A DNA stretch of 64,000 bases from Patescibacteria group bacterium. GTDB lineage: Bacteria > Patescibacteriota > Patescibacteriia > Patescibacteriales > UBA12465. The translations under genes were made by a program, and so were the position numbers. The notes beneath the pieces were generated by a model. That model searched no databases and had not been told where the DNA came from. It saw nothing but the letters and a program-made list of their open reading frames with translations. Location of the stretch: contig JALNZW010000001.1 in assembly GCA_023229115.1 (NCBI GenBank), positions 6,861 through 70,860 on the forward strand. Reading direction: 5' to 3'. Of the stretch, positions 44,164 to 64,000 are shown piece by piece. How positions within the stretch are numbered: the stretch's first letter is position 1; every line of letters begins with the position of its first letter.

Positions 44164-44164
44164 T

Positions 44165-44566
44165 ATGACAATTGATATAAATAATTTAAGTAAAGACAGG
44201 CTTAATTTGAGTCGAATTAAATTAATAACAGAATTTTTTTCCAAGAAATATAAGCTTAAAGGTGACATCTCAATTGCTTTTATTGGTGATAAAAGAATGA
44301 GAGAGATAAACAAAGCTTATCGTGGTTTTGATAAAACAACAGATGTTTTGTCTTTTGAGGATTTAAATGAAGTGATTATAAATATTAAACAAATCAAAAG
44401 ACAAGCTAAAGAATTTAAAAAAACATTTCAGTCCGAACTTGATTTTATCCTGGTTCATGGTTTGTTGCACTTAGTTGGTTTTAGAGATGATTCGGAAAAA
44501 GATCGTTTAAAAATGATTTCTTTAGGTGATAAATTTTTGTCAAATTTTAATCTAAAAAAAGTATGA
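44165..44566 (+). CDS. ybeY: rRNA maturation endoribonuclease YbeY
   Basis: TDVLSF and HGLLHLVGFRDD motifs. The third zinc-ligand His of the usual GYDH appears to be replaced. Confidence 0.8.
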   Translation: MTIDINNLSKDRLNLSRIKLITEFFSKKYKLKGDISIAFIGDKRMREINKAYRGFDKTTDVLSFEDLNEVIINIKQIKRQAKEFKKTFQSELDFILVHGLLHLVGFRDDSEKDRLKMISLGDKFLSNFNLKKV

Positions 44567-45162
44567 AGAGAAATGCCTTTACTTTAATAGAAGCTTTAGT
44601 CAGTTTATCAATTATTATTATTCTTAGCTCTTTATTGGTGGCTAACTATAAAGTAGGAGAGGATTATTCTTCTTTAAATAATTTTCAAATTTCTCTTGTT
44701 TCCGACCTCGAATCTCTTAAGTGGAAAGCTTTAAATTTAGAGTATTATAATGATCAATTACCAGTTTATTGGGGCGCTAGTTTAAATTTGGCTTCTTCTT
44801 CTTATCAAATTTTTGCTGATTTAGATGGAGACATGTTAGTCGACAGCGATGAAATTAATCCCTCTTTTGGAGCTAAAGAATATTCCTCTGCCGGTAATAT
44901 TATTAGTAATATAAGTTTGTCTGATGAAGTGTTGATTCTATTTCCAACTGATTCTTTTTTTCCTTTTTTTTATGATGCCACCAATTATTCAACCTCAAGT
45001 TCTGATTTAATAATTGAATTAAAAAGTATTGAATCTAATATGGCCAAATTAGTGATTGCTAACCAGTTTGGCCTAAATGATGCTGAAGATTGTTCTTGTG
45101 GTGATTCTGGTAAATATTGTTGTTCCTTTTGTTCTGTTGGTTCTTCTTGCATCTCTTATTAA
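44563..45162 (+). CDS. type IV pilin-like protein with Cys/Ser-rich C-terminal tail
   Basis: Prepilin leader and N-methylation motif KRNAFTLIEALVS. The tail is CSCGDSGKYCCSFCSVGSSCISY. The ATGA start overlaps the ybeY stop. Confidence 0.75.
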   Translation: MKRNAFTLIEALVSLSIIIILSSLLVANYKVGEDYSSLNNFQISLVSDLESLKWKALNLEYYNDQLPVYWGASLNLASSSYQIFADLDGDMLVDSDEINPSFGAKEYSSAGNIISNISLSDEVLILFPTDSFFPFFYDATNYSTSSSDLIIELKSIESNMAKLVIANQFGLNDAEDCSCGDSGKYCCSFCSVGSSCISY

Positions 45163-45175
45163 TTATTTTTCTGTT

Positions 45176-45691
45176 ATGAAAAAGAAATCAAAAAATAAGA
45201 AAGCTTTTACTTTGATGGAAACAGTTGTCATCCTTTTTGTTTTGAGCGTTGGGCTTTTATCGATTATATCGCTAGTTAGAAAGAGCTTGTATTTCCAGAG
45301 TATTAAAAAAAATTTAGTGGTTGCTTCTTATTTATCACAAGAAGGAATAGAGCTGATGAAAAATATTAGAGATACTAATATTATTTTAGATTTAGATTAT
45401 GATTTGTGGGATGGAATATCGTCGGCCGGTGTTGGTGAATATACTTACAAGATTGATTATTATTCTTTAATTGCTACTAGTTGCCCAAGCATAGATCAGG
45501 CGATTTTGCAAAATGATGGTGGATTTTTTAGGCATTTAGATGGGGGAGAAGATACTATTTTTAAAAGACTGATAACTGTTAGGGCTGAAACTTTGGCTAG
45601 TACAATTGTTGAGTCTTGGGTTAGCTGGACGGATCGTGGTCAGAATTATGATTATAAATTAGAGACTGTTTTATATGATCTATCAAATTAA
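45176..45691 (+). CDS. type IV pilin-like (minor pilin) protein
   Basis: KKAFTLMETVVILFVLSVGLL is a prepilin motif. The start is set at ATG 45176. Confidence 0.75.
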   Translation: MKKKSKNKKAFTLMETVVILFVLSVGLLSIISLVRKSLYFQSIKKNLVVASYLSQEGIELMKNIRDTNIILDLDYDLWDGISSAGVGEYTYKIDYYSLIATSCPSIDQAILQNDGGFFRHLDGGEDTIFKRLITVRAETLASTIVESWVSWTDRGQNYDYKLETVLYDLSN

Positions 45692-46206
45692 AAAAAATAA
45701 AAAAGCTTTTACCTTAATAGAGATATTAGTTTCTATTTCAATTGTTTCTTTTGTGATTTTAGCAACAACTAGTATTTTCAGATCAACCATGAATAGCCAG
45801 AAAAAGTTGGTTATGGATTCAGCGGTCCTAAACGATATTAATTATTTTTTAAAATTAGCTACCGATAATATTAGAAATTCGGAGATTAGTGATGGATCGA
45901 TTTGTGGTATTGCAGCTGACAAATTTTTTGATGTTCAAGCAAATTTTATTGCTTTCATTAAAGATGGTCAGTGTCATTATTTTGAGGCAATAGATGATGA
46001 TGGGGTTATGAGATTGGTTATGTATACTGATTCTAAGGGAGAAAATTATATCACTAGTAAAAAAACAAATATTACTAGTTTTAATTTTGAGGTAGAGGAT
46101 TTTATTGAATTTGGTCAGCCTTTAGTTACAATATCTATTAAGGCAACACCAGTTGATGAGCCCGAAAATGATGTTCAGACTCAAACTAGTGTGTCAATTG
46201 ATTATT

Positions 46207-46214
<8 letters not shown>
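45675..46214 (+). CDS. type IV pilin-like (minor pilin) protein
   Basis: KKAFTLIEILVSISIVSF is a prepilin motif. Confidence 0.75.
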
Positions 46215-49721
<3,507 letters not shown>

Positions 49722-49722
<1 letters not shown>

Positions 49723-51191
49723 TGGAATATAATAAACTAACAATTAGTGAGCTTCATGATCTTTTGCAAGCTGGAAAGCTTAGTTCTTTGGATTTGACTG
49801 AGTTCTTTTTGGCTAGAATAGAGAAAATAGATAGTAGCTTAAAAGCTTGTATTAGTATTTTTAAGGAAGAGGCTAGACGGCAAGCTAAAAAAGCTGATGA
49901 AAGAATTGCTCAGGGTGAAAAAAATAAATTGTTAGGCATTCCTTATTTATGTAAAGACAATATTTTAACTAAGGGTTTAAAGACAACGGCTGCTTCTAAA
50001 ATGTTGGAAAATTATATTGCTCCTTACAATGCCACTGTTATAGAAAAATTAAATAATGAAGGAGCTGTTTTATTGGGTAAAACCAATTTAGATGAATTTG
50101 CTCATGGAGCTTCAACTGAGAATTCAGCCTTTTTTGTAACCAGAAATCCTTGGGATTTAGAAAGAGTTCCTGGTGGTAGTTCTGGCGGATCAGCAGCGGC
50201 TGTGTCTGCTGGCTTGTCTGTTTTTGCTTTAGGAAGTGATACTGGCGGTTCAATTCGTCAACCAGCTAGTTTTTGTGGGGTGAGTGGTTTGAAACCAAGT
50301 TATTCTCGCGTATCAAGATATGGTTTGATTTCCATGACATCTTCAACGGATGTTATCGGACCAATTACTAAAAATGTTGAAGACTCTGCCTTGGTCATGA
50401 ATGTTATTTCTGGCTTTGATCAAAATGATTTAAGTTCTTGTTCCTTGGAAATTGATGATTATCTTAAAAATTTAAATAAAAATTTAAAAGGTTTGAAATT
50501 GGGTGTGGAGTATAATTTTATTGATAGTCTAGATGTTAAAATGTCAGATCAAATCAAAAAATCATTAGCTGTTTTTGAATCCTTGGGAGTAGAAATTATT
50601 CCAATCTCTTTGCCTTATAACAAATATGCTGGTTCAGTTTATTATATAATAACTCCAGCTGAGATTAGCTCTAACTTAGCTAGGTTGGATGGAATTAGAT
50701 ATGGCTTTTCTTCTGATTTAAAAGTTGAGCAATCAAATAATAATTTAAATGATATTTATTTAAAAAATAGAGGACAGTCTTTCGGTGAAGAAGTTAAGCG
50801 TCGTGTAATTTTAGGAACCTATACTTTAAGCTCTGGTTATTTCGATGCTTATTATAAAAAAGCTATGGCTGTTAAAGAGAAGATAAAACGGGAATTTGAA
50901 AATATTTTTGAGACAGTAGATGCTGTTTTAACCCCCAGCTCTCCACACATTGCTTTTAAAGTTGGCGAACAAGTTGATGATCCGCTTAAAATGTATTTAG
51001 AAGATATTTTTGTTACCGGCCCTTCATTGGCTGGGCTTCCGGCTATATCTATACCAGCCGGTTTTGTTGATAATTTGCCAATTGGAATTCAATTATTTTC
51101 TAAAAAATTTAATGAAACTATTGTTTTGAATTTAGCCGATCAATTTCAGAAAAAAACAGATTATCACCAAAAAAATCCTAATATAAATTAG
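49722..51191 (+). CDS. gatA: Asp/Glu-tRNA amidotransferase subunit A
   Basis: Amidase signature GGSSGGSAAAV..GSDTGGSIRQPA. Confidence 0.97.
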
Positions 51192-51218
51192 TTTATAAAT
51201 ATAATTAATTTTAAAAAT

Positions 51219-51950
51219 ATGATAAAAAGTTTTTTCAAAGACAAGAGAATAACTTCAGTTTTCATGATTGTTTTTATTCTAATTTTAACAATGATTGTTT
51301 TTGCTATCTATGGTGGCAATAAAATTAAGAGAGTGGTTGATACTATGAGCCCAGAAGAAGTTGCTTCAGTAGTGGAGGCGGGTAATTTTTTAGCTGATGG
51401 ATTAAGAGGAATGGACAACTCTGATATTATTCTTGGTAAAAAGAATGCCAAGATTAAGGTGATTGTTTATGAAGATTTGTCTAGCTATTATTCAGCTGAA
51501 TTTGACGAAACTTTAGATTTAATCAGAAGAGAAGTCGGCGATGATGTGGCTATTGCTTTTAGACCTTATGCGGACAAAATGTTTTCTAATTCTGTTTCTG
51601 TTAATTTATGGTCTCAATGTGCGAACGAACAGGGAAAATTTTTTGAAGCAAGAGATTTGCTTTTAGATGAAGTTAAAAAAGATTCATTATCAGTTGATTA
51701 TTTAGGTGACTATGGACAAAAAATTGGCTTAAATCAAGGTTTGATTGATGATTGTTTAAATAAAGAAAAATATTTACCTAGATTAGAGAAAATAAAATCT
51801 GAAGCTGAAAGATTTGACGTTTATGGTGTACCAACTATCTTTGTTGATAATGAAATGATTGTTGGTGCTAGATCTTTTAATGATACTGTTAATAATAATG
51901 GTGAAAAATTAGAAGGAATGAGAAATATAATTTATAGACATTTAAATTAA
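51219..51950 (+). CDS. DsbA/thioredoxin-like protein with the CxxC active site replaced by SxxS
   Basis: N-terminal TM. YEDLSSYYSAEF aligns to the usual DfqCPfC segment. SQCANEQGKFFE and GVPTIFVDN are conserved DsbA-like elements. Confidence 0.65.
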   Translation: MIKSFFKDKRITSVFMIVFILILTMIVFAIYGGNKIKRVVDTMSPEEVASVVEAGNFLADGLRGMDNSDIILGKKNAKIKVIVYEDLSSYYSAEFDETLDLIRREVGDDVAIAFRPYADKMFSNSVSVNLWSQCANEQGKFFEARDLLLDEVKKDSLSVDYLGDYGQKIGLNQGLIDDCLNKEKYLPRLEKIKSEAERFDVYGVPTIFVDNEMIVGARSFNDTVNNNGEKLEGMRNIIYRHLN

Positions 51951-51962
51951 TTTTTTAAAAAT

Positions 51963-52079
51963 ATGGATAATTTGTTTTTGTTATTTGGTTGGGGATCTCC
52001 AATTGGAACTGGCTTTTTCTTGGTTTGTCTTGGTTTGTTTATTTTTTTATTATCTAAGTCTGACAAGAAAAACAAATAA
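51963..52079 (+). CDS. possible 38-aa membrane peptide
   Basis: MDNLFLLFGWGSPIGTGFFLVCLGLFIFLLSKSDKKNK. It is below the ORF-track cutoff. Confidence 0.25.
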   Translation: MDNLFLLFGWGSPIGTGFFLVCLGLFIFLLSKSDKKNK

Positions 52080-52143
52080 AAAAATTTAGCCACGTAAATT
52101 ATCTTTCAAAAGGTTTAGGCGTGGCTTTATTAGTGATTTTCTA

Positions 52144-52169
52144 GGAGAGTTCGCATAGTGGTCTAGTGC
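52144..52169 (+). pseudogene. tRNA-Ser 5' fragment (positions 1-26 duplicated)
   Basis: GGAGAGTTCGCATAGTGGTCTAGTGC is identical to 52266-52291. No T-arm or 3' acceptor strand follows. Confidence 0.7.
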
Positions 52170-52197
52170 CAGTCTACGGCTGATCAGCCGTAGGCTG
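52170..52197. repeat. 28-nt near-perfect palindrome (core CTACGGCTGATCAGCCGTAG)
   Basis: The 20-nt perfect palindrome at 52174-52193 is extended by CAGT/GCTG, including one G-T pair. It abuts the tRNA fragment. Confidence 0.8.
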
Positions 52198-52265
52198 ACG
52201 CTAATATCAAATTAAATGTTTTATTAAATATTTTTTATAAAACCATGTTTTATACATAAAATTTT

Positions 52266-52353
52266 GGAGAGTTCGCATAGTGGTCTAGTGCGCACGCTTG
52301 GAAAGCGTGTATACCGCAAGGTATCAAGGGTTCGAATCCCTTACTCTCCGCCA
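52266..52353 (+). tRNA. tRNA-Ser (anticodon GGA), class II with long variable arm, CCA encoded
   Basis: Manual fold gives acceptor GGAGAGT/ACTCTCC, a D-arm, anticodon stem CACGC/GCGTG with loop TTGGAAA, variable arm ATACC-GCAA-GGTAT, T-arm AAGGG-TTCGAAT-CCCTT, and discriminator G plus CCA. Confidence 0.9.
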
Positions 52354-52381
52354 AGACAATTTAGTATCGGATAGACCCAAG

Positions 52382-52405
52382 AGCCTAGCTTATGCTAGGT
52401 TTTTT
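52382..52405 (+). terminator. rho-independent terminator after the tRNA
   Basis: AGCCTAGC-ttat-GCTAGGTT followed by a T-run. Confidence 0.7.
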
Positions 52406-52469
52406 GATATTATTTAGTAATTTTAATTTTAGCCTGAATAATTTAAAAAAAAGAGGTATAATTATATAT

Positions 52470-53372
52470 ATGAAGAAAGTAGGAAGAAATGATCCATGTC
52501 CATGTGGAAGTGGAAATAAATATAAAAAGTGCTGTATGAATAGTTTAAAAGAAGTTGGCGTTTTGCGCAAAGCTTATGATATAGGTAAAGATAAAGATTT
52601 TTACGCAAGGTTTTTATTTGGACTAAGTGATATAAGAAATTGTGTTTATAAGAATGATGAAAGATCAGAGTATGATAAAAGTTTTGACGCAGTGTTTCAA
52701 AATATACTGGAAATGCATATTGTTAAAAATAAATGTTTTGAACTGATTAGCAGACATTCCACAGCAATAGAAAAGGAAGAGGATGGGAAGTTTCATGGTA
52801 ATCAAATTGATGTAAATGAAGGAATCGATGATGAGTTAAATATTTTCTTTAAAGATTTTTTTATAAGAGGAGAGATGGCAATACAAAATTTAATCTCTCA
52901 CTCTCGATATATGGGTTCCAACATAAGCTTCTTTTTTACAGATGAGAAGAAAAAGTTTCGTAAAGGTTTGGATAAGTTTGTTTTAGAAGAAAATGATTCT
53001 AGATTTAAGGCCCTTAGCTTGTTTATAAAAGAACATAGAGCTGCTTGGTATGAATCTGTAAATGATTTACGTAATAAAATAGAGCATCAGGGATGGCGTT
53101 TGCCAATAATACGTTACAGCGTAAATGATATGGGAAAAGTTAAAATCATTTTACCGAAATTTTATGAACAAAGCATTGTGGATTTTCTAGAAAATATTTG
53201 GATAAATATAAGTACATTTTGTGAAGAGGTTATTGTTTTTCTTTTAAGTCTTAAATTAAAAAAAGATATGATTTTAGTTTTCATACCAGAAGAAAAAAGA
53301 GATAAGGATTTGCCAGTAAAATACATTGTTAGTCACAAAGATTTTCCTGGAGTTAAACTGCAATGCGGTTGA
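52470..53372 (+). CDS. SEC-C motif protein with a C-terminal RNxxxH (HEPN-like) motif, unknown function
   Basis: The N-terminus [18 protein letters not shown] is a SEC-C zinc motif. [10 protein letters not shown] is at 53067-53096. The start is set at ATG 52470, with TATAAT at 52457-52462. Confidence 0.65.
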
Positions 53373-53437
53373 TAATGTTTTAACATTAATTTAAATAAAG
53401 CATTTATTTACATTTAGAAAGAGTTGCTAGTAAAAAA

Positions 53438-54802
53438 TTATAACATTAATAAAGATAATTTTTTATCTTTTAGCACAATCTTACTCCTTAAATTAACCAG
53501 TAACTCACGTTTCTCAATAGAACTTCCTTCTTTTAGCACGTATTTAGCATAAACCCGCATATCAACTGCGGGTTTTGTTTTTCTTTTAGGATTTTTATCC
53601 ATTAGGATCATGTTTTGAAACTTATTAAATCTATTAACCTCAGCTTCTAATTTAACTCTCATTCCAAGCTCATTAATATCTACTTTATCCATAATTTTTA
53701 AAAGCTCAAATATCAATTCTTCTTCTCTTATGTATTTATTTTTACAGAATCTGTCTCTTGCTCTTGAGCAACCATAATAAATGTAATGAGCAGTAGTTCC
53801 GTCTTTTAATTTTTTATACTTATCTTCTGCTGATATTCCTGATCCACAACATCCGCAAGTTATTAATTTAGTAAAAGCAAATTCTTTACTTTCTCTTTGA
53901 ATATTATCTCTTTTAAGTTGAGCTTTAGCTTTCTCAAATAAGTCTTGGGAGATAAGTGGTTTATGTTTACCTTGATACCAATTACCACTACCTTTTGGTC
54001 GTTCAAAGATTCCATAATAGAAAGGGTTATCTAATATTCTATATATTCCACTTAGTGTTAAAGGTTTATTACCTCTAGTATAGAAGTTGAGTTCATGTTT
54101 TAGCCAGTGATAGAGTTTTCGACCACTATATTTTTCATAAGCAACTTTTTCAAACATTTTCTTAATAGCGGGAGCTCTTAATGGATCAACAATAACTTGG
54201 CATTTTCTATCCATTCTATTTTGGTTTAGATATCCCAGTGGAGCAGGTCCAACCCATAATCCCATTTCACATCTAGTTCTTAGTCCTCTTTTAACATTAA
54301 TACTTCTGTTGTCATTTTCTAACTTTGCTTGTGATCCTAAAATCATTAAGAGAAATTTCTCATTGGGATTGTTAGTAAATTTTTGACTATGCGTTCTTAT
54401 CTCTTTTAATATTCCTTGATCTATTAAATCTACTACTTTTCCTAGGTCTCCTGCATTTCTAGATATTCTATCAGGAGCCCAGGTTAGTATGCTATTAAAT
54501 TTATTTTGCCTAATATCCTCAATTAATTCATTGAATATTGGCCTTTGACCTGTATCTTTGGCACTGTGAGATTCTCGTTTTATCTCTACAACATTTATAT
54601 TTTCCTTAGCAGCTAAATCTAGCATCTCTTTAATTTGGCTATCTATTGATAGCACCTGTCTTTCCTCTGATTCCGTTGATTTTCTTGCGTAAAGGCAATA
54701 TCTTAGCGGAATTTCGCTAACGCTTGAATTTGCCCCATTAGGGCTTGAAATTAGCCCAGTTTGGCTCTTAGTTGTCATTAATTGTTTAAAATCTTGTATC
54801 AT
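53438..54802 (-). CDS. large serine recombinase (integrase)
   Basis: Resolvase catalytic domain (YARKSTESEERQVLSIDSQ), a recombinase domain, and a zinc ribbon (CGCCGS...YYGCSR). Confidence 0.9.
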   Translation of the reverse strand: MIQDFKQLMTTKSQTGLISSPNGANSSVSEIPLRYCLYARKSTESEERQVLSIDSQIKEMLDLAAKENINVVEIKRESHSAKDTGQRPIFNELIEDIRQNKFNSILTWAPDRISRNAGDLGKVVDLIDQGILKEIRTHSQKFTNNPNEKFLLMILGSQAKLENDNRSINVKRGLRTRCEMGLWVGPAPLGYLNQNRMDRKCQVIVDPLRAPAIKKMFEKVAYEKYSGRKLYHWLKHELNFYTRGNKPLTLSGIYRILDNPFYYGIFERPKGSGNWYQGKHKPLISQDLFEKAKAQLKRDNIQRESKEFAFTKLITCGCCGSGISAEDKYKKLKDGTTAHYIYYGCSRARDRFCKNKYIREEELIFELLKIMDKVDINELGMRVKLEAEVNRFNKFQNMILMDKNPKRKTKPAVDMRVYAKYVLKEGSSIEKRELLVNLRSKIVLKDKKLSLLML

Positions 54803-55010
54803 ATAGTCTTGTTAACTGCTATCTACTAGATTAATGACGTATAAGGGGATATATGTCTAGAGCCATAAAGTTGATAAGATGTAGATAAATAGGCTATTTA
54901 TTTCTCTAAGATTCAATAAAATTTAAATTGATTTTTTAGTAAATTTATGATAAATTAAATGTAAAGAATTAATAAATAAATTCTGATTATTTTTTATTAA
55001 ATTAATTTAT

Positions 55011-56528
55011 ATGGCTAAAGAAAAAGAGAAAAATGGAAAATTTGAAGCACAGCTTTTTAAGGCAGCGGATAAACTTCGTAAAAATATTGATGCGGCAGAA
55101 TACAAGAATGTTGCTCTTGGGTTGATTTTTCTTAAATATATTTCTGAAAGTTTTCAAGAGTTGTATGACAAACTCTCACAAGATGAGTTTTCTGACCCAG
55201 AAGATAGAGATGAATATAAAGCGGAAAATATCTTTTTTGTACCTGAAAAAGCAAGGTGGAAAAACTTACAAGCCAAAGCAAAATTACCAACTATTGGACA
55301 AGAGCTTGATGATGCAATGGAGGCGATAGAAAAAGAAAATTCCGAACTTCGTAATGTTTTGCCAAAAGTATTTGGAAAGCCAAATCTTGATACAACTTCT
55401 CTTGGTCAATTGATTGATCTTATTTCAAATACAGAGCTCAAAGCAACTAGTGAAAACTCTAAAGATCTTTTTGGTCGTGTGTATGAATATTTTTTGGGTG
55501 AATTTGCCAACGCTGAGGGAAAAAAAGGAGGACAATTTTACACTCCTAAGTCTATTGTAAAACTGATGGTTGAGATGATCGAACCATATAAGGGTCGTGT
55601 CTATGATCCGGCCTGTGGTAGTGGTGGCATGTTTGTTATGAGTGAAAAATTTATTCAAGAACATCGAGGAAATATTAAAGACATTACAATTTATGGACAA
55701 GAATCAAATCAGACCACTTGGAAATTATCTAAAATGAATCTAGCTATCCGAAATATAAATTCGCAATTTGTTGTTTGGAACACAGGAGGAAGTTTTTTAA
55801 AAGATGCTCATCCTGATCTCAAAGCTGACTATATTCTAGCAAATCCTCCGTTCAATCAGTCTGATTGGGGACGAGAAATTTTACAAGATGATGCAAGGTG
55901 GAAATATGGAGTACCACCAAATGGAAATGCTAATTTTGCTTGGATGCAACACATGCTTTATCACCTAGCATCTAATGGGGTAATGGCAACTGTTTTGGCA
56001 AATGGAAGTCTTAGTTCTAATACTTCAGGTGAAGGAGAGATAAGAAAAAATCTGATAGAAAATGACTTGGTAGAATGTATTGTGGCTCTTCCAAAACAAC
56101 TTTTTTATAATACTGGAATCCCTGCTTGTATTTGGTTTCTTCGTAGAGAAAGACAAGTCAGAAAAAACGAGATTCTTTTTATAGATGCTTCAGAAATGGG
56201 TTTTTTGAAAGATCGTGTTCATAGAGAATTTACAGATGAAGATATGGATAAAATAAGCGAAACATATCACAACTGGAAAAAAAATTCGGAGAAATATGAA
56301 AATATCAAAGGCTTTTGTAAGTCTGCAAAAAGAGGTGAGGTGGAAAAAAACAACTTTGTGTTGACTCCTGGCCCTTATGTTGGAATTACCGATGCAATAG
56401 ATGACGGCATTCCTTTTGAGGAAAAGATGGAAAAATTGACAAATATTTTAAAAGAACAGTTTGCTAAGGAAGAAAAAATGAATGAAGAGATTAAAAAACA
56501 AATGAAAAAAATAGGTTTTAGTATCTAA
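55011..56528 (+). CDS. hsdM: type I R-M DNA methyltransferase subunit M
   Basis: LFKAADKLRKNIDAAEYKNVALGLIFLKYISE, DPACGSGG and NPPF. Confidence 0.95.
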   Translation: MAKEKEKNGKFEAQLFKAADKLRKNIDAAEYKNVALGLIFLKYISESFQELYDKLSQDEFSDPEDRDEYKAENIFFVPEKARWKNLQAKAKLPTIGQELDDAMEAIEKENSELRNVLPKVFGKPNLDTTSLGQLIDLISNTELKATSENSKDLFGRVYEYFLGEFANAEGKKGGQFYTPKSIVKLMVEMIEPYKGRVYDPACGSGGMFVMSEKFIQEHRGNIKDITIYGQESNQTTWKLSKMNLAIRNINSQFVVWNTGGSFLKDAHPDLKADYILANPPFNQSDWGREILQDDARWKYGVPPNGNANFAWMQHMLYHLASNGVMATVLANGSLSSNTSGEGEIRKNLIENDLVECIVALPKQLFYNTGIPACIWFLRRERQVRKNEILFIDASEMGFLKDRVHREFTDEDMDKISETYHNWKKNSEKYENIKGFCKSAKRGEVEKNNFVLTPGPYVGITDAIDDGIPFEEKMEKLTNILKEQFAKEEKMNEEIKKQMKKIGFSI

Positions 56529-56539
56529 TAATAAAGGAT

Positions 56540-57745
56540 ATGACTGAAAAAAAATTAAATACTAAAAATAATAAAAATCTACCTCCGATTAATTGGGTAG
56601 AAACAACTTTGGGAAAGGTTATAAAAATTGGAAGAGGGTCATCACCTAGACCAATCCAAAATTATATCGTTGAAAAAAAAGGTATTCCTTGGGTAAAAAT
56701 TGCAGACGCAACAGCATCCCGTAGTAGATATATAGAAAAAACAAAAGAATTCATTAAAGAAGAAGGAAGAAGTACGTCTGTCTCTCCTGGTGATTTAATA
56801 GTTTCAAATAGCGCAACTCCAGGTATTCCAAAATTTATGAAAATTGAGGCATGCGTTCATGATGGTTGGTTAGTTTTTAGTGAGTACAAAAATCTTGATA
56901 AATTATATCTTTATTACTTTTTCCTTGATTATAGAATAAGATTAGAACGATCTGCATTTGGTACAGTTTTTAAAAATTTAACAACAGAAATTGTAAGAAG
57001 TGTTCCAATTTTTCTTCCCCCTCTCCGTGAACAAAAAGCCATTGCTTCGTTGCTTTCGGCTTATGATGACAAGATTGAGCTTTTGAAATATCAAAACAAG
57101 ACGCTGGAAGAGATTGGGCAAGTAATTTTTCAGGAGTGGTTTGGGAAGTATGAATTGGATGATTTTATAAAAGTTCAGGAAATTTTAGAGTTTGAAAAAG
57201 GAGTTGAAATTGGATCAAATAATTATTTTGTTAATAAAAATGATTTAGAAAAACCAGAAATGTTTTATAGAGTTGGAGATATAGCAAATAATGGAAATAA
57301 TTCATCTATTTATTGTGAAAAAGATTTATTGAAGGGTAAAATATTTAAAAACGATGATGTTTTAGTAAGCTTTGATGGAACAGTTGGAAGGGTTTTTATA
57401 GGCGGAAATGGTGGTTATTCTTCTGGAATTAGAAAGATTTTTGATAAAAATGTAAATATTAAAAATTCATTTTTATATTTTTGGGCAAAATCAGAACAAG
57501 TTCAAGAAACAATAAATTTATATTCAGAAGGAACAACAATTCAGCATGCTGGTAGGTCAATTCCGTATTTAGAAATTATTTCTAATCGAGAAAATATTGA
57601 TGAAATAACAGAAAGTTTAAACCCAGTTTTTATAAAGATTTTAGAAAATCTTAATCAAATAAGAATACTTTCAAGCGCTCGTGATGAAATTCTGCCAAAA
57701 CTTATGTCCGGAATTGTTAGAGTTAATGATTTTAGTAGTAATTAG
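56540..57745 (+). CDS. hsdS: type I R-M specificity subunit S
   Basis: Two TRDs separated by LPPLREQKAIASLLSAYDDKIELL, with a C-terminal conserved helix RDEILPKLMSG. Confidence 0.9.
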   Translation: MTEKKLNTKNNKNLPPINWVETTLGKVIKIGRGSSPRPIQNYIVEKKGIPWVKIADATASRSRYIEKTKEFIKEEGRSTSVSPGDLIVSNSATPGIPKFMKIEACVHDGWLVFSEYKNLDKLYLYYFFLDYRIRLERSAFGTVFKNLTTEIVRSVPIFLPPLREQKAIASLLSAYDDKIELLKYQNKTLEEIGQVIFQEWFGKYELDDFIKVQEILEFEKGVEIGSNNYFVNKNDLEKPEMFYRVGDIANNGNNSSIYCEKDLLKGKIFKNDDVLVSFDGTVGRVFIGGNGGYSSGIRKIFDKNVNIKNSFLYFWAKSEQVQETINLYSEGTTIQHAGRSIPYLEIISNRENIDEITESLNPVFIKILENLNQIRILSSARDEILPKLMSGIVRVNDFSSN

Positions 57746-57753
57746 AAATTTAT

Positions 57754-58776
57754 ATGGAAAAAGTAATTTTTGATACAAATATTCTTAGAAATTTAGAACC
57801 TAAAAATTTTCTTGGTGGTAGAGATGAGTTAAAAAAATTTTCCGAGGTAGCAGAAATTATTTTCCCTGACTTGGTGATAGAAGAGTTAAAATATCAAAAA
57901 AGGAAACAACTTGAAAAACATAAAAAATCATTTTTGGACAATCCATTTCATTGGTTAATAAAGATTAACCAACAAGATATAGAAAAATTTGACAATGAAG
58001 CTCATATTACGGATCTGGAAAATAGCGAAGACATAAAATATACTGTTATAAGGTTACAAGATTATTCAATCTTGGAGCGAATAAAAGTGTTAGCGCTTAA
58101 AAAGATTTCTCCATTTGAAAAAGGAGATAATACAGATAAGGGATTTAAGGATGCTTATATATATTTTACAATCTTAGAATATTTACAAACAATTGCAGAT
58201 AAACATATTTTTGTTTGCACGAAAGATGGAAGATTAAAAGAAGCATTACAAAAACATTCTAATATTAAGACTGTACAAAACTTTGAAGAATTTGAAAAAT
58301 ACAGTGTTACATCTTTTTATGATGAATATTTTATAAACAAGCTAAAAGAATCTGTTCATTTAGATATAGTAAAAGATAGTATAAAAGATTTTTGGTTTGG
58401 CGCAGAAGAAAACCAATTTTTATTAATAGAGGTTGAAGATGAAAAATTGGTAATTGAAATAGATCAAAGAGAGATAGTTTCTAATATTAACTACAATTTA
58501 ATCAAAGATGATATAGAAAAAATAATAGTATCTGATAATTGGAAAAACACCCATGCTAGGTGTAAAAATATTTTGTTAAATGTAAAATATATAACACCAT
58601 CTGATTCAAAAAGATTATTTAGTGCTTTACTCGATAATGACCAGATTTATGAAACTTATAGTTATGGCGTACAAAATTTTTACAATAAATTATTTAAAAT
58701 TCATTATCATTTATTAGATCATAGTGATTTAGAAAAAATGAAAAGTGAGTTTAAGCTATATTATAGTAATGATTAA
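57754..58776 (+). CDS. PIN-like domain (PIN_12/DUF4935-type) protein with an unknown C-terminal half
   Basis: Acidic-residue spacing VIFDTNIL ... VIEEL ... FKDAYIYFTILEY ... VCTKDGRL fits a PIN fold. It is inserted between hsdS and hsdR. Confidence 0.6.
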   Translation: MEKVIFDTNILRNLEPKNFLGGRDELKKFSEVAEIIFPDLVIEELKYQKRKQLEKHKKSFLDNPFHWLIKINQQDIEKFDNEAHITDLENSEDIKYTVIRLQDYSILERIKVLALKKISPFEKGDNTDKGFKDAYIYFTILEYLQTIADKHIFVCTKDGRLKEALQKHSNIKTVQNFEEFEKYSVTSFYDEYFINKLKESVHLDIVKDSIKDFWFGAEENQFLLIEVEDEKLVIEIDQREIVSNINYNLIKDDIEKIIVSDNWKNTHARCKNILLNVKYITPSDSKRLFSALLDNDQIYETYSYGVQNFYNKLFKIHYHLLDHSDLEKMKSEFKLYYSND

Positions 58777-58802
58777 GCTTTTTGAGAATTAATTAAAATA
58801 TT

Positions 58803-61800
58803 ATGACCACACTAAACGAATCAAATATCGAACAAAATCTTATAGACTTGCTCACAGCACAAGGATATATGTATTTTTATGGTCCAGATATTGCTCCTTA
58901 TTCTGCTAATCCTCAAAGAGAAAGTTTTGCTTCTGTTGTTTTAGAAAGTCACCTCAAAGAATCTTTAAAGAGGCTTAATCCTGATATCCCAGAATCTGCG
59001 CGACAAGAAGCGTGTCAACAAATTGTTAATCTGGGCTCTCAAGACTTAATGGCAAATAATGAAAAGTTTCACAATTTTCTCACTGATGGAATTACAGTTG
59101 AATATTTTAAAGATGGGAACACTAAAGGAATTAATGTTAAACTTCTTGACCTAGAAAATATAGAGAATAATAGTTTTTGGGCAGTTAATCAATTTGTTAT
59201 TAAAGAAAATAATAATGAAAAAAGGCTTGATGTCGTAATTTTTGTAAATGGAATCCCTTTGGTTGTAGTGGAACTTAAAAGTGCCATTGACGAAAAAGCG
59301 ACGTTAGATAGAGCTTTTACTCAAATTCAAAATTATAAGAAAGCTGTGCCTAGTATTTTTTACTATAATTCATTATGCGTTATTTCCGATGGAATAGATG
59401 CTAGATCCTCTAGCATCTCTGCTCCTTTTTCTCGTTATCTTGCATGGAAAAGTCCTGAGAAAATAGAAAACGGAAAGCTTACAGAAATGCAGATTATGGT
59501 AGAAAGAATGCTTAATAAAGAAGTATTACTTCGTCTTGTCAGATATAATACAGTTTTTGAAGAAGAAGAAATAAAAGATGAAAAAACAGGACTTTTGTCA
59601 GTTATAAAAGTAAAGAAAATCGCAGCATATCATCAATATTATGCCGTAGAGAAAGCTATTAGAGAAACTCTTCGAGCTACTAATTCAGACATAGGCGACA
59701 GAAAGGTTGGAGTAGTTTGGCATACCCAAGGATCCGGAAAGTCTCTCTCTATGGTTTTTTATACTGGACAAATTGTTGTTCAACCAGAAATGAAGAATCC
59801 AACTATTGTGATTTTAACCGATAGGAATGATCTTGATGATCAACTTTTTGGAACTTTTGGAAATTGTAAACAATTGCTTAGACAAACACCTGTGCAGGCG
59901 GAAAATAGAGAGCATTTAAAAGAGCTTCTTAAAGTTTCTGGAGGGGGAATTGTTTTTACCACTATTCAAAAATTTGCCCCAAGCGAAGGAAATGTTTATG
60001 AAACTTTATCTGAAAGATCAAATATTGTAGTTGTAGCAGATGAGGCTCATCGAAGCCAATATGGATTCAAAGGAAGAGAGGTAGAGACAGAAGATGGATC
60101 AGAAATCAGATATGGAAACGCAAAGTATTTAAGAGATGCTCTACCAAAGGCCTCTTTTATTGGGTTTACTGGGACTCCGATAGAAAAAGAAGACAGGTCA
60201 ACTAGAAATGTTTTTGGCGATGAGATAGATATTTACGATATTAAACAAGCTGTAGATGATGGAGCAACTGTACCAATCAATTACGAATCAAGGCTTGTGA
60301 AGATTAGGCTTAACAAAGAAGTGGTAGATAAAATTGATTATGCAGTTGATGAAATTCCAGGGGCGACAGAAGAGCAAAAAGAAAAAGCTAAAAAGAAAAA
60401 TGCTAAAATAGATGCAATAGTTGGGCATCCCGAAAGATTGCAAGATATTTCAAAAGATATTGTTTCTCATTTTGAAGCAAGACAAAAAACTTTTGAAGGT
60501 AAAGCAATGGTCGTGTGTATGACAAGACAAATTGCAGTATGGTTGTACCAAGAAATTATTAATCTTCGCCCAGATTGGCATAGTGAGGATTTGGATAAAG
60601 GTAATATAAAGATAGTAATGACATCTTCCTCTGACGATCCAGAAAGCTTTCAATCGCATCATACTAGTAAGAGTGATCGTAAGAAATTAGCTAATAGATT
60701 TAAAAATGAAAATGATGAATTAAATATCGTTATTGTTCAGTCTATGTGGCTCACAGGTTTTGATGTTCCTTGTTTACATACCATGTATATTGATAAAAAA
60801 ATGCAAGGCGCAAACCTAATGCAAGCCATTGCTCGTGTTAATCGTGTGTACAAAGATAAGCCAGGTGGACTTATTGTGGATTATATTGGAATCGGGCAAG
60901 ACCTTAGAAATGCAATGGGCGTCTATATTAAAAGTGGCGGAGAAGGAGAAGCCGTGCTTGATATTGCTGAAATTATAGCAGGAATGAAAACAAAGTTTGA
61001 AATTGTGGAACAAATGTTTCATGGTTTTGAATATAAAAAATATTTTAAATCTGAAAATAATGAGAAATTAAAAATCATTCTTGGTGCTACCAACTTTATA
61101 TTGCAAGATGAAAAGCTAAAAAATAGATTTATTGCTGAAATTACTGCATTATCAAAACTTTTTGCAATGGCAGTCCCTAGTTTTGAATCAGAGCAAATAA
61201 GAGATGAAGTTGCCTTTTTTCAATCAATAAAAGCTCGTATTAATAAATTTACTCCAAGTGGAGGAAAGTCAGATAAACAAGTAGAAACAGCGGTTAAGCA
61301 AATAGTAGATGAAGCACTCGCAAGTGACGGAGTTGTGGATATATTTGAGGCCGCAGGAGTAAAAACTCCAACACTTGATATCTTGTCAGAGGAATTTTTG
61401 CTTGAAGTTAAAAATATGGAGCAAAAAAATCTTGCTTTTGAGTTACTTCGTAAATTATTGAATGATGAAGTAAAAATTAGAAAAAGAAAAAACATGACAC
61501 AGGGAAAAATATTCTCCGAGATGTTGGAAAATATAATTAAAAAATATCATAATAATCAAATTGATACGGCTCAAGTTATTCAAGAGCTTTCAGAAATTGC
61601 TCGTGAGATGAAATTAGAAGATAAAAAAGCAGAAGATATTGGACTTACGCCAGAGGAGTATGCTTTCTATTCAGTACTTTCAGAAAATGATTCAACTAAG
61701 TTTTTAGAAGATCATAAGATGAAAGAATTAATTCATGTAATAGTTGATATTATTAGAAAAAATGCAACAGTAGACTGGGAAAAAAGAGAAGATGTTAGAG

Positions 61801-61931
61801 CTAAACTTCGTTTAACTGTTAAAAAGATACTGATGAAATATGGTTATCCTCCTGATTTAGCCAGAATTGAAGCGGATAGAGTTTTGGAACAAGGTGAATT
61901 GTTGGCAAGTGAATTAACAAGATTAAAGTAA
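58803..61931 (+). CDS. hsdR: type I restriction endonuclease subunit R
   Basis: LDVVIFVNGIPLVVVELKS, WHTQGSGKS, DEAHRSQ and QAIARVNR. Confidence 0.95.
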   Translation: MTTLNESNIEQNLIDLLTAQGYMYFYGPDIAPYSANPQRESFASVVLESHLKESLKRLNPDIPESARQEACQQIVNLGSQDLMANNEKFHNFLTDGITVEYFKDGNTKGINVKLLDLENIENNSFWAVNQFVIKENNNEKRLDVVIFVNGIPLVVVELKSAIDEKATLDRAFTQIQNYKKAVPSIFYYNSLCVISDGIDARSSSISAPFSRYLAWKSPEKIENGKLTEMQIMVERMLNKEVLLRLVRYNTVFEEEEIKDEKTGLLSVIKVKKIAAYHQYYAVEKAIRETLRATNSDIGDRKVGVVWHTQGSGKSLSMVFYTGQIVVQPEMKNPTIVILTDRNDLDDQLFGTFGNCKQLLRQTPVQAENREHLKELLKVSGGGIVFTTIQKFAPSEGNVYETLSERSNIVVVADEAHRSQYGFKGREVETEDGSEIRYGNAKYLRDALPKASFIGFTGTPIEKEDRSTRNVFGDEIDIYDIKQAVDDGATVPINYESRLVKIRLNKEVVDKIDYAVDEIPGATEEQKEKAKKKNAKIDAIVGHPERLQDISKDIVSHFEARQKTFEGKAMVVCMTRQIAVWLYQEIINLRPDWHSEDLDKGNIKIVMTSSSDDPESFQSHHTSKSDRKKLANRFKNENDELNIVIVQSMWLTGFDVPCLHTMYIDKKMQGANLMQAIARVNRVYKDKPGGLIVDYIGIGQDLRNAMGVYIKSGGEGEAVLDIAEIIAGMKTKFEIVEQMFHGFEYKKYFKSENNEKLKIILGATNFILQDEKLKNRFIAEITALSKLFAMAVPSFESEQIRDEVAFFQSIKARINKFTPSGGKSDKQVETAVKQIVDEALASDGVVDIFEAAGVKTPTLDILSEEFLLEVKNMEQKNLAFELLRKLLNDEVKIRKRKNMTQGKIFSEMLENIIKKYHNNQIDTAQVIQELSEIAREMKLEDKKAEDIGLTPEEYAFYSVLSENDSTKFLEDHKMKELIHVIVDIIRKNATVDWEKREDVRAKLRLTVKKILMKYGYPPDLARIEADRVLEQGELLASELTRLK

Positions 61932-61951
61932 ATAGATAATTACAGACATTG

Positions 61952-61978
61952 AAAAACGAGGCAACGCCTCGTTTTTTT
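61952..61978 (+). terminator. rho-independent terminator of hsdR
   Basis: AAACGAGGC-aac-GCCTCGTTT followed by TTTT. Confidence 0.8.
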
Positions 61979-62040
61979 GTTGTAGACAAGATGTAGGTAA
62001 CTATTCTTTACTTTTAGGCTATTTTAAGCTATATTTTAAG

Positions 62041-62185
62041 TGCGAAACCACAATTGAATATTCCGAAAGAAGCATGAAACATGCTGTCATTTGTATACAG
62101 GAACGGGCACTCCGACCCTATACAAGTGGCAGTCTTTCGGGACACCAATTGTGGTTTCGCAACCAAGGTCGGGTGTCCGTTTTTG
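62041..62185 (+). ncRNA. unclassified highly structured RNA-like element (candidate cis-regulatory leader or sRNA)
   Basis: A 16-bp closing helix (62041-56/62146-61), an 8-10-bp P2 (62063-70/62133-40), a hairpin at 62071-85, and a 12-bp P3 (62086-97/62119-30). A terminator-like hairpin plus T-run (62140-62184) overlaps the 3' strands. G-U pairs favour the + strand. Confidence 0.5.
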
Positions 62186-62240
62186 TTTATTAGAGCCTTG
62201 CCTTATCTAATAAATTAATTAGCCATAAGGCTACAAAGTT

Positions 62241-62822
62241 ATGACTACAACACCTGTTGAATTATTTTTCAACATCATAATTTTCTCATTTCTAATTATT
62301 GGTTTGGTTAAACCAAGTATATTAGAAAAAGTTTTTAAAAGAAAAATGACTAGAGGAAAGACAATCCTTTATAGTTTTTTAGCTTTTTTTGCATTAACCA
62401 TGGTTACAATGGATTGGAGTTCTACTGAAACTACAAACAATAATCAAGTAAATAATGGATATGGATTAGTTTCAGGACAAGATTTAGTTATAGAAGAACC
62501 TAAAGAGCCAGAGTATCTTTTACAAGTGGAAAGTTTTAACTGCTATGAAGAATATGGTTACTTCCACATTACTGGGGAAGTAACCAATATCTCCAATCGT
62601 TCTTTAAGTAATATTGAGGCCGTTGGTGGTATGTATACTGATGAAGGGGAATTTGTTAAGTCAGACTCTGCTTTAATAGACTATAATCCTGTCCTAAGTA
62701 ATCAAACATCTCCATTTTCTATTATATCAACAATGAATCCAGCTATTAGTAAGTGCAATGTTAATTTTAAGACTTTAATGGGTGGGACAATTGCAACTAA
62801 AAGTGCAGATGATTCAGAGTAG
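62241..62822 (+). CDS. membrane protein with an extracytoplasmic FxLYD-like beta domain
   Basis: Two N-terminal TM segments. The C-terminal FHITGEVTNISNRSLSNIEAVGGMYTDEGEFV resembles FxLYD-type domains. Confidence 0.5.
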   Translation: MTTTPVELFFNIIIFSFLIIGLVKPSILEKVFKRKMTRGKTILYSFLAFFALTMVTMDWSSTETTNNNQVNNGYGLVSGQDLVIEEPKEPEYLLQVESFNCYEEYGYFHITGEVTNISNRSLSNIEAVGGMYTDEGEFVKSDSALIDYNPVLSNQTSPFSIISTMNPAISKCNVNFKTLMGGTIATKSADDSE

Positions 62823-63341
62823 TTAACCTCTTACAAGGATTTTGCTATTATCAACGTCATCATCTTCATCATCGTCGTCATCATTAGAGTTGTCATGCCA
62901 CATTGCGAATCTTTTATTTATTTCTTCAGCCTTTTCTTTACTGATTTCTCCTGGCTTACTTTCTTCAGAGTCCTTAATCTGTAGAGGGAAGAAATATTCA
63001 TGATGTCTTCTGCTAAGATGATATTTAATCATACCGCTATCACCCATATTTATTTTTTCTATTAGTTTACTTTTAGCTAAGTCATTTATAATATCATTAC
63101 CAATAGAAGTTGCCTCTTTTACTCTTTTACTAAATTCAATATCTTCTCGCATCCAACGATATATTGTTGACCGAGGGACATTTAATTTACGACAGGCAGT
63201 TTCTTTAATTGAACTCTTAGATATTTCTTCTATAAATCTTTCTTTAATTTTCTCTTGTCTACTAATAATGTCTTTGTTATTATATTTTTTCTGAGTATAA
63301 TTTCTTTTAATCTGTGGTTTTGTTGTATTTCTCTTTGTCAT
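62823..63341 (-). CDS. HTH DNA-binding protein with poly-acidic tail (terminase-small-subunit-like or transposase-HTH-like)
   Basis: ACRKLNVPRSTIYRWMRED is an HTH motif. The C-terminus is NSNDDDDDEDDDVDN. The start is set at ATG 63341. Confidence 0.5.
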   Translation of the reverse strand: MTKRNTTKPQIKRNYTQKKYNNKDIISRQEKIKERFIEEISKSSIKETACRKLNVPRSTIYRWMREDIEFSKRVKEATSIGNDIINDLAKSKLIEKINMGDSGMIKYHLSRRHHEYFFPLQIKDSEESKPGEISKEKAEEINKRFAMWHDNSNDDDDDEDDDVDNSKILVRG

Positions 63342-64000
63342 ACAATGAAACATTAGATTTATTAGAATCGTTAATTGCATTGTATTGTTTCCTAATAATT
63401 TCACAGTAATCTTTATCAATCTCTATCATAAGACACTTCCTTTTTGTCTGCTCGCAAGCCAGAAGGGCTCCACCACTTCCACCAAAGGGATCAAATACCA
63501 CATCTCCTACCTTAGAACTATTAAGAATCAATCTTCTTAGTAGTGATATTGGTTTTTGAGTAGGATGAAGTTTGCTCCTGTTTGGTTTTGGGCAAAATAA
63601 GATACTTTTGTCTTTGCTCTTTTTGAATGAATGTCTGCCGTGCCAAGCATAGGCTATAAGTTCGTGTTGGGGTAGATAGTCCAGTCTTCCGATAACAGCG
63701 TTACTTTTTATCCAAATTAAAAGCTGGGAAAAGTATAGACCAACATTTATCATCGCCTGTCTTAAGGCAAATATCATCTTATCTGAATTGAATATATAGA
63801 TAGTATTTTTATTATTTAAAAATGGTATTAAAATTTTTAACCATTTTTCACTAAATGTTATATATTCACTTTCAGTTTGAAGATGATCATTTTCAATCTC
63901 CTTTGGTTTAGCTAGGTTTTGAGTAAAGCCTGCCTTACTCTCAACGTAGGAAACGCCATAGGGTGGGTCAGTTAAAACAATATCTATTTTATCTTCGCCA
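63307..64000 (-). CDS. N4/N6 DNA methyltransferase (PF01555-type), N-terminus beyond the window
   Basis: My translation is open to the window edge. DPPY lies at about 63958-63969 and the AdoMet motif is VFDPFGGSGG. It is longer than the track ORF 63307-63777. Confidence 0.85.
   Translation of the reverse strand, partial: GEDKIDIVLTDPPYGVSYVESKAGFTQNLAKPKEIENDHLQTESEYITFSEKWLKILIPFLNNKNTIYIFNSDKMIFALRQAMINVGLYFSQLLIWIKSNAVIGRLDYLPQHELIAYAWHGRHSFKKSKDKSILFCPKPNRSKLHPTQKPISLLRRLILNSSKVGDVVFDPFGGSGGALLACEQTKRKCLMIEIDKDYCEIIRKQYNAINDSNKSNVSLYDKEKYNKTTD

Follow-up and report, generated by a model that had tools for sequence, protein, structure and literature searches.

What is the block of DNA that follows the only tRNA gene in this stretch of a Patescibacteria genome, and how did it come to lie there? 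The stretch analysed, called the window below, comprises 64,000 nt of contig JALNZW010000001.1 (assembly GCA_023229115.1), has a G+C content of about 30% and contains a single tRNA gene, tRNA-Ser(GGA), at 52266-52353 on the plus strand (ARAGORN; Rfam tRNA, 57.8 bits). To the right of that gene, an earlier sequence-only reading had described an island of stacked candidate defence modules, namely a SEC-C protein, a large serine recombinase (LSR), a second type I restriction-modification (R-M) locus, a structured RNA, a membrane protein, a helix-turn-helix (HTH) protein and a DPPY DNA methyltransferase (MTase). All of these parts lie where it had placed them. We are confident that the sequence from 52352 to the end of the window makes up the left 11.6 kb of an integrative mobile island, which was inserted by its own LSR at the 3' end of tRNA-Ser(GGA) and carries exchangeable cargo. 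Judged by the length of its siblings, the whole island is probably 15-20 kb.

The argument begins with an empty site. A search for the contig encoding exactly the DsbA-like protein upstream of the tRNA gene retrieved a 37-kb metagenome contig (JGI 3300028602; L004) that is 100% identical to the window over 41219-52351 (11.1 kb). Over 41219-52354 the identity is 99.991%, with the sole mismatch at the junction. The two sequences split right after the discriminator base of tRNA-Ser, past ...CTCTCCGC; there the window continues with CAAGACAATTT and L004 with TAAAAAAAAG. Beyond this point, L004 carries core genes (a 140-aa gene, a 159-aa gene, UDG and BipA) and nothing of the island. Ten more contigs encode the 140-aa protein; five of these have the empty site and the other five an attR junction at the same place. 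Horizontal acquisition, as proposed from the sequence alone, is thus borne out by an 11.1-kb identical flank without the island, and the comparison that the sequence-only reading had called for, with strains lacking the block, finds them in L004 and in four more read-set assemblies.

The junctions can be read to the base. In the attR contigs, the left flank ...GGTGGTACTTAACTC(AG/TA)GTAGCCCGC is joined to TAAAAAAAAG, and in a Paceibacterota metagenome-assembled genome (MAG; L024) this same left flank is joined to CAAGACAATTTAGTATCGG, a P-core-P' junction. The four types are attB (...CTCTCCGC / TAAAAAAAAG), attL (...CTCTCCGC / CAAGACAATTT), attR (...GTAGCCCGC / TAAAAAAAAG) and P-core-P' (...GTAGCCCGC / CAAGACAATTT). 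Alignments and junction comparison leave CCGC, at 52348-52351 in the window, as the only sequence common to all four, and there are no long flanking direct repeats. Junction types with no more than CCGC in common are the product expected of a large serine recombinase; a tyrosine integrase acting at a tRNA gene does not yield them. CC would be the crossover dinucleotide, since it is the only non-palindromic dinucleotide in CCGC.

The 3' half of tRNA-Ser(GGA) is the B arm of the attachment site. The P' arm of attL, CAAGACAATTTAGTATCGGATAGACCC (52352-52378, plus strand), forms the left end of the island, and the same sequence is found at tRNA-Ser genes elsewhere. The terminal CA of the encoded CCA comes from the island: L004 has CTA where the window has CCA. 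A hairpin followed by a T-run (CCTAGC-TTAT-GCTAGG-TTTTTT; 52384-52405, plus strand, read from the sequence) is a tRNA terminator of island origin, and siblings of the island have an equivalent terminator hairpin whose stem sequence is different. In the mechanism that we propose, the island's own LSR would carry out a conservative crossover within CCGC at the 3' end of tRNA-Ser(GGA), and the incoming DNA would rebuild the tRNA end and bring a terminator with it. As a separate observation, the first 26 nt of tRNA-Ser(GGA) are exactly repeated at 52144-52169, 122 nt upstream of the gene, and are followed by a GC-rich hairpin that runs to about 52200 (CAGTCTACGGCTGATCAGCCGTAGGCTGAC). Since L004, the empty-site strain, has this repeat too, the repeat is unrelated to the island; it may be the remnant of a tRNA duplication or a pseudo-tRNA.

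This junction evidence also bears on a quite different view of the locus, that of a hypervariable region downstream of a tRNA gene, reshuffled by homologous recombination, in which the recombinase is merely an invertase or resolvase. A composition equal to that of the core and cargo that is clearly exchanged between siblings would suit such a region. However, the break is base-precise and falls at one 4-bp core even where the genomic contexts are unrelated, the P arm meets B' just where site-specific crossover would put it, and the recombinase has integrase-type Recombinase and zinc-ribbon domains; we consider the hypervariable locus highly improbable.

The LSR gene itself belongs to the island backbone (53438-54802, minus strand) and encodes 454 aa. 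Its N-terminal resolvase domain (PF00239, 5.8e-20) carries the catalytic-serine motif YARKST at residues 38-43, and the Recombinase domain (PF07508, 9.5e-13) and the zinc ribbon Zn_ribbon_recom (PF13408, 5.4e-9) complete the protein, which matches phrog_95 'integrase' at 4e-65. Relatives 52-87% identical occupy the same position beside tRNA genes. The sequence-only reading had allowed that the enzyme might turn out to be a non-integrative invertase or resolvase; the three-domain integrase architecture, together with the reconstructed attL, attR, attB and attP-type junctions, speaks otherwise. By inference, the island owes its movement to this LSR.

Scans of IMG/VR and of the representative genomes of GTDB, guided by the island's proteins, revealed a family of such elements. 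About 30 metagenome loci have a syntenic module of ParB-MTase, MTase, HTH and LSR genes on one strand; it is also present in MAGs assigned by label to Patescibacteria, Paceibacterota or Moranbacteria, in a few under other labels, and on contigs that IMG/VR lists as viral. The P' arm adjoins tRNA-Ser genes of four isoacceptors (GGA, TGA, GCT and CGA) in at least eight genomes: it stands at tRNA-Ser in L125, L025/L069, L098, L124, L080, L114 and L109, and in L024 it adjoins the P arm. A more distant LSR relative lies 120 bp from tRNA-Gln. The complete sibling L025, with both ends, spans about 15.4 kb without any structural or replication gene; its left part runs tRNA-Ser(GCT), type IIG R-M, LSR, RNA, Zn-ribbon protein, HTH, MTase and ParB-MTase, and its right part DUF6119, three small open reading frames (ORFs), AbiJ_NTD3-AAA_21, an HNH-like protein and attR. 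Another sibling, L125, is 91-94% identical at the nucleotide level and lies at tRNA-Ser(TGA) in a different genomic context. In these comparisons, the conserved backbone consists of the LSR, an RNA of about 150 nt transcribed divergently from it, the HTH protein, which resembles a terminase small subunit (TerS), an orphan MTase and ParB-MTase. At least four cargo slots are set into it, between attL and the LSR, between the LSR and the RNA, in the ORF behind the RNA, and in the right arm beyond the window.

What kind of vehicle might this be? LSRs drive some integrative mobilisable elements and cassette chromosomes, and a ParB-like domain is present, both of which an integrative conjugative or mobilisable element moving by conjugation would accommodate. 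Yet the window, L025 and the other right arms were all found to lack a relaxase, a coupling protein, type IV secretion genes and any oriT-like feature, and this explanation is very unlikely in our judgement.

The genes at the right of the window have a phage flavour. The backbone HTH protein (62823-63353, minus strand) matches Sf6_terminase at 3.7e-6 and PHROG TerS families at 1e-8 to 1e-6, and its gene adjoins the MTases in all relatives. The backbone N6/N4 DNA methyltransferase with a DPPY motif (N6_N4_Mtase, 2e-36) occupies 63307-64000 on the minus strand and extends to the window-equivalent position 64113. A ParB_N-MTase fusion follows just past the window, in locus L001, which extends to 65151; L125 has the full 424-aa ParB_N + N6_N4_Mtase protein. 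In distant relatives, a TerL-like gene lies between the TerS-like gene and the LSR (Terminase_6C 1e-5, GpA_ATPase 2e-4). The defence-island or prophage-remnant character proposed from the sequence alone therefore holds, in that a phage-like backbone (TerS-like, ParB-MTase and MTase genes, with the TerL-like gene in distant relatives) is combined with family cargo dominated by R-M systems. When 82 large proteins from outside the backbone were compared with PADLOC, components of type I and type IIG R-M were matched far more often than anything else.

Could the island then be a decayed prophage, that is, a temperate phage with an LSR integrase that has lost its structural genes and its mobility? 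The TerS-like HTH, ParB-MTase and MTase genes are typical of phages, the TerL-like gene of distant relatives is kept directly before the LSR, and the IMG/VR listing of relatives as viral contigs agrees with such an origin. Decay, however, would not readily leave the same compact gene set with intact att ends in many genomes at different tRNA-Ser genes. Moreover, presence or absence between strains with an identical 11-kb flank points to current mobility and not to independent decay, and neither the window nor any sibling examined has a portal, capsid, tail or lysis gene. We regard the decayed prophage as unlikely. The same holds more widely for gene content: portal, capsid, tail, lysis, replication and conjugation genes were all absent from the siblings and right arms examined (L025, L125, L049 and others). 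An integrative island moved by its own LSR thus remains our preferred explanation; given its marginal TerS-like gene and the lack of structural genes, it may travel by means of a helper phage, in the manner of a satellite.

Several points weigh against this explanation. The right end of the window's own copy lies outside the sequence seen, and the known extension stops short of it. No excised circle was observed, and the P-core-P' junction of L024 could be a tandem or remnant junction and not a free attP. Nor was a recombination directionality factor found, or any gene for replication or transfer. The likeness to TerS is marginal, with Pfam Sf6_terminase at 27.4 bits and its cut-off at 27. The attR contig L049 was recovered from the sample that also gave the window-identical contig, and it represents a variant element, 90.6% identical over the overlap and 95.6% over the flank. 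The role of the cargo in defence against phage is a putative one. Finally, the GC content of the island equals that of the core, and its tetranucleotide distance to the 26-51 kb core is only slightly raised (15-18 x1e-3). The compositional comparison with the core that the sequence-only reading had suggested was therefore uninformative, with equal GC and a small tetranucleotide signal. In the same comparison, positions 1-25000 of the window show a tetranucleotide distance to the core of 17-23 x1e-3, equal to or above that of the island, and a lower GC of 0.27-0.29; this part may be another accessory region.

The right boundary was said at the outset not to be visible, and it does lie outside the window. 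Extension past 64000 gained 1151 bases through L001, and the second attachment site is not within them. Sibling lengths suggest that the right end lies at roughly 67-72 kb, at a P-arm/CCGC/TAAAAAAAAG junction, and the junction sequence expected there is ...GGTGGTAYYTAACTCNNGTAGCCCGC / TAAAAAAAAGAAAAAACTGATTC. Since L049 is a variant, it does not give the right arm of the window's own copy. About 130 nt inside the right end, on the P-arm side, the sequence is block-conserved among L049 (7480-7600), L024, L025 and L051; the blocks are AGTGTCTCATTTGTCTCATT with a GTCTCATT direct repeat, CCCGACCCACTTACTTA and AAAAANCCCTTATAA, and they may be accessory binding sites or an island-end promoter. Two contigs carry two backbone modules each, with two LSRs or two RNAs (IMGVR_UViG_3300014205_009253, L019/L022; IMGVR_UViG_3300042286_000458, L063/L064). 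These doubled modules and the P-core-P' junction of L024 (6640-6745) suggest tandem or nested arrays of islands.

The backbone also includes a structured RNA of about 150 nt (approximately 62040-62188, plus strand; fold z-score -7.7). It folds into helices P1 (62042-62056 / 62146-62160) and P2, a variable P3 hairpin, and P4. A consensus scan found a promoter-like site, TTTACT-17 nt-TATATT, at 62007-62035 on the plus strand; it ends 6-7 nt before P1, its -10 box and spacing are kept in 59 relatives, and it is predicted to put the transcript start at the 5' end of P1. The RNA is conserved at 95% in L024 and at 71-75% in L025 and L026, always beside the LSR in these loci, and it is carried by 60 JGI metagenome loci and one IMG/VR contig. 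Relatives were found with a pattern made from the loop and tail described below, both segments being fixed save three free loop positions. Among 59 distinct sequences, compensatory changes occur at 21 of the 29 nested pairs of P1 (12 bp), P2 (6 bp) and P4 (11 bp). Helix cells are paired in 98.7% of cases, versus 31-42% when the partners are slid, and none of 500 shuffles reached the observed covariation score. G-U pairs number 123 and A-C pairs 16; because G-U outnumber A-C, the transcribed strand is the plus strand of the window. This same excess and the 21 compensatory pairs disfavour a DNA-level inverted repeat or protein operator.

A second pairing is apparent in the RNA. The 21-nt P4 loop (62098-62118, CAGGAACGGRCAYNCCGACC) and the 3' tail (62167-62179, GGTCGGGTGTCCG) show complementarity that extends over 13 bases, and a U-run (62180-62188) follows the tail. 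Of the three free loop positions, the first kind invariably has a purine facing U and the second a pyrimidine facing G, and the third, which is bulged, can be any base. These positions fit loop-tail pairing; they are not covariation. An nhmmer search over all collected loci found no divergent copies of the RNA.

What might the RNA do? The LSR start lies about 190-250 nt upstream of it and is divergent in about 30 loci, and the HTH and MTase genes are downstream and convergent. An ORF begins 39-65 nt past the tail in about 50 of the 59 loci, and these ORFs are mutually unrelated, encoding mostly small membrane or zinc-ribbon proteins. In the window, this third cargo slot holds a 193-aa membrane protein (62241-62822, plus strand) with a hydrophobic N-terminal helix at residues 5-25 and with no Pfam, PHROG or PADLOC match. 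Furthermore, a loop-like box complementary to the tail is found 11-13 nt past the tail in 17 of the 59 loci, versus 0.5 expected; the window copy is without this box.

A role as an obligatory partner or guide of the LSR, like a bridge RNA, was considered and rejected. In the LSR-less derivatives L080 (4165-4600), L114 (150-561) and L109, tRNA-Ser and the P' arm are followed by the RNA and its ORF within about 180 nt; the recombinase and slots 1 and 2 are deleted, and the RNA-ORF module is retained. Conversely, LSRs 57-72% identical to that of the window have less than 90 nt upstream of the gene and no copy of the RNA. As LSR-less loci keep the RNA and these LSRs lack it, we do not take the RNA for an LSR cofactor. 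No complementarity was seen between the RNA and the att arms or the LSR leader. The RNA was also considered as a retron msr/msd, and this too was rejected: L024 keeps the RNA at 95% without a reverse transcriptase among its scanned ORFs, and in the sibling with a type VI retron the reverse transcriptase lies several kb away in the right arm. Nor is it a known riboswitch or small RNA, for Rfam gave no match at the gathering threshold and noise alone (E >1) in 61900-62300. The RNA would thus be a backbone leader or a small RNA, with the loop-tail helix as a terminator, that controls or precedes an exchangeable ORF; a leader or attenuator for the ORF behind it would be one such arrangement.

There is a likeness here to the immunity RNAs of P4 (CI RNA) and P1 (c4 antisense RNA), which pair with repeated boxes in their own transcript. 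Similarly, the 3' tail is complementary to the upstream box in the P4 loop, and in 17 of the 59 relatives it is also complementary to a similar downstream box. In contrast to those systems, there is no sequence or Rfam similarity to them and the window copy has no downstream box, so that the likeness is one of analogy only.

The first cargo slot, from attL to the LSR stop codon, holds a SEC-C zinc-motif protein (52470-53372, plus strand; Pfam SEC-C, 3e-9). The protein has the motif LRNKIEH, in which R202 and H207 (Rx4H) are invariant in 31 homologues, in agreement with the Rx4-6H signature of HEPN domains. It has about 70 full-length homologues, mostly from Patescibacteria, some of them without the SEC-C motif. 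With its AlphaFold2 model (mean predicted local distance difference test score, 90), Foldseek gave no PDB match below E 0.001, the top matches being Csx1 (E 0.028) and a HEPN-MNT toxin (E 1.0); a weak PADLOC match to Csx1 (0.0065) covers the Rx4H motif, and a profile search of PDB sequences matched the SEC-C motif alone. The protein is a plausible but unproven candidate for a HEPN-like RNase. In L125, a YaaC-family gene occupies slot 1 instead.

The second slot, between the LSR start and the RNA promoter, holds a 7.1-kb type I R-M cassette (54861-61980, plus strand). All its genes are on the plus strand: hsdM (55011-56528; HsdM_N and N6_Mtase, 7e-113; PADLOC MTase_I, 1e-201), hsdS with two target recognition domains (56540-57745; two Methylase_S stretches; PADLOC Specificity_I), a gene for the predicted nuclease PIN_12, or DUF4935 (57754-58776; 6e-11), and hsdR of the type with a HindI-like C-terminal domain (58803-61931; HSDR_N, SWI2_SNF2, T1R_D3-like and T1RH-like_C; PADLOC REase_I, 1197 bits). 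With hsdM, a two-domain hsdS and an hsdR with nuclease and SF2 motor domains in one operon, the locus has the full make-up of a type I system. The two type I systems of the window share no DNA identity, as the sequence-only reading had noted, and at the protein level identity is about 30% for HsdM and likewise for HsdR. Set against L024, L025 and L026, block 54861-61980 stands out as an insertion; in L024, positions 13924 and 13916 are contiguous at this point. L125 has the same R-M cassette in the same place, and other loci have 0.4-3.5 kb of different DNA inserted at this position. The cassette is flanked by imperfect 16-nt direct repeats, GAYAAGATGTAGRTAA, at 54873-54888 (GATAAGATGTAGATAA) and 61985-62000 (GACAAGATGTAGGTAA); the uninterrupted sibling L024 carries the right-hand version only (TGTAGGTAA). 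These repeats may be the footprint of the entry of the cassette into slot 2.

The PIN-like gene was described initially as an insert in the second type I locus. Its presence is confirmed, with PF16289 at 43 bits against a cut-off of 32 and with D7, E44, D128/D133 and D158, as expected of a PIN nuclease, invariant. Its standing as an insert is not, since the gene is a conserved member of this type of cassette. A protein search gave 198 homologues of PIN_12/DUF4935 from many phyla, and in all four distant contexts examined (Flavobacterium, Sulfurimonas, a JGI metagenome and Carboxylicivirga) the gene stands between hsdS and an hsdR of the T1RH-like_C type. Thus hsdM-hsdS-PIN_12-hsdR is a conserved four-gene cassette in several phyla and PIN_12 is no stray insert; it could be a second nuclease that acts with the R-M system or guards it. 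A survey of the PIN superfamily gives the function of DUF4935 as unknown and its genes as mostly monocistronic (PMC5499597), and the R-M linkage found here is not recorded there.

In other phyla, further genes are inserted in such cassettes: GmrSD in Flavobacterium, RhuM in Sulfurimonas, and a HepT-like/nucleotidyltransferase (HEPN/MNT) pair fused with or beside hsdS. A SMODS or Abi_2 gene lies just downstream of PIN_12 cassettes elsewhere (L059, L061 and a locus of JGI 3300072015). The first type I R-M locus of the window (5764-15818) is also interrupted. It consists of half an hsdS (5764-6333), hsdM (6381-7895), a gene for a Bro-N protein (8005-8841), an Rfam DUF3800-IX RNA (8871-8939, minus strand, 46.8 bits), an unknown 468-aa ORF (9324-10730), hsdS (10672-11910) and hsdR (11934-15110), and then a YgjP-like metallopeptidase gene. 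A Pfam DUF3800 match was absent among the scanned ORFs neighbouring the DUF3800-IX RNA.

For the fourth slot, the right arm, we turned to siblings, where the cargo includes a type VI retron with a Cas4-like nuclease in one and Abi-like ATPases in another. The right arm of L049 encodes a type VI retron (HTH_VI/RT_VI), a Cas4-like PD-(D/E)XK protein, an HTH_17 protein, a GNAT protein and a 530-aa protein, and L125 has a 1080-aa ORF to the right of its ParB-MTase gene. The retron (HTH_VI, 3e-20; RT_VI, 2e-65) and the Cas4-like gene after it occupy 2099-4370 of L049, and the 900-nt non-coding stretch upstream (1202-2099) could hold the retron non-coding RNA.

An integrase-bearing, tRNA-adjacent defence island is a well-known kind of object. 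Like the Islander-type islands at tRNA and tmRNA genes, this one occupies the 3' end of a tRNA gene, which it restores, has its integrase gene near the tRNA-proximal end, and is absent from close strains; insertion at or in a tRNA gene and absence from close relatives are part of the Islander definition. Such islands are described as the work of tyrosine integrases, with a displaced fragment of the tRNA gene marking their boundary (PMC4383910). The window island differs from them in having a serine-type enzyme, ends that share only CCGC, and, in siblings, an attR without a tRNA fragment.

The three-domain LSR, the short att sites of minimal identity and the cargo without its own transfer genes are features in common with SCCmec/ccr, the Enterococcus cassette chromosome, Bxb1 and phiC31. 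LSR elements of the SCCmec/ccr, Bxb1 and phiC31 type target protein-coding genes (rlmH, groEL1 and others), whereas in the present family, which has a structured RNA as a conserved component, the targets are tRNA-Ser genes with several different anticodons in Patescibacteria. A further resemblance is to phage-inducible chromosomal islands and P4-like satellites, in that siblings are 15-20 kb, have an integrase and a TerS-like gene but no capsid or tail genes, and swap defence cargo in fixed slots. Unlike these satellites, they show no replication or primase module, repressor pair or helper phage (no primase, replicase or repressor pair was detected in the siblings) and TerS is marginal, so that the resemblance is architectural and not a demonstrated membership. 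The R-M cassette recalls type I loci with an embedded nuclease, such as prrC between hsd genes, because an extra nuclease gene is kept between hsdS and hsdR across phyla; in contrast to those loci, the embedded protein here is PIN_12/DUF4935.

In an incomplete literature collection, we found no description of LSR islands at Patescibacteria tRNA genes or of the structured RNA. What is new here is the serine-recombinase mechanism at tRNA-Ser in bacteria of the Candidate Phyla Radiation, a compact conserved backbone that offers four slots for cargo, an RNA supported by covariation and an R-M/PIN cassette of four genes. A broader proposal can be put forward only tentatively, with rather less than even confidence: that these elements constitute an undescribed family of satellite-like, LSR-driven defence islands of Patescibacteria that target tRNA-Ser, with a new class of RNA of about 150 nt. 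This RNA would fold into a three-way junction, with a terminator formed between the apical loop and the 3' tail of the same molecule, and would gate an exchangeable effector ORF, either as an attenuator or as an immunity RNA of the P4-CI/c4 kind.

The genomes of Patescibacteria are tiny and contain few CRISPR systems, and little is known of the mobile elements of these bacteria. Two by-products of this analysis are open to direct testing, the hsdM-hsdS-PIN_12-hsdR cassette across phyla and an RNA family absent from Rfam. Moreover, the LSR and its deduced att sites in tRNA-Ser, with their 4-bp core, offer a possible integration tool for organisms so far without genetics. For the biology of the group, the locus provides a base-precise example of Patescibacteria gaining and losing defence genes, with attB, attP, attL and attR defined.

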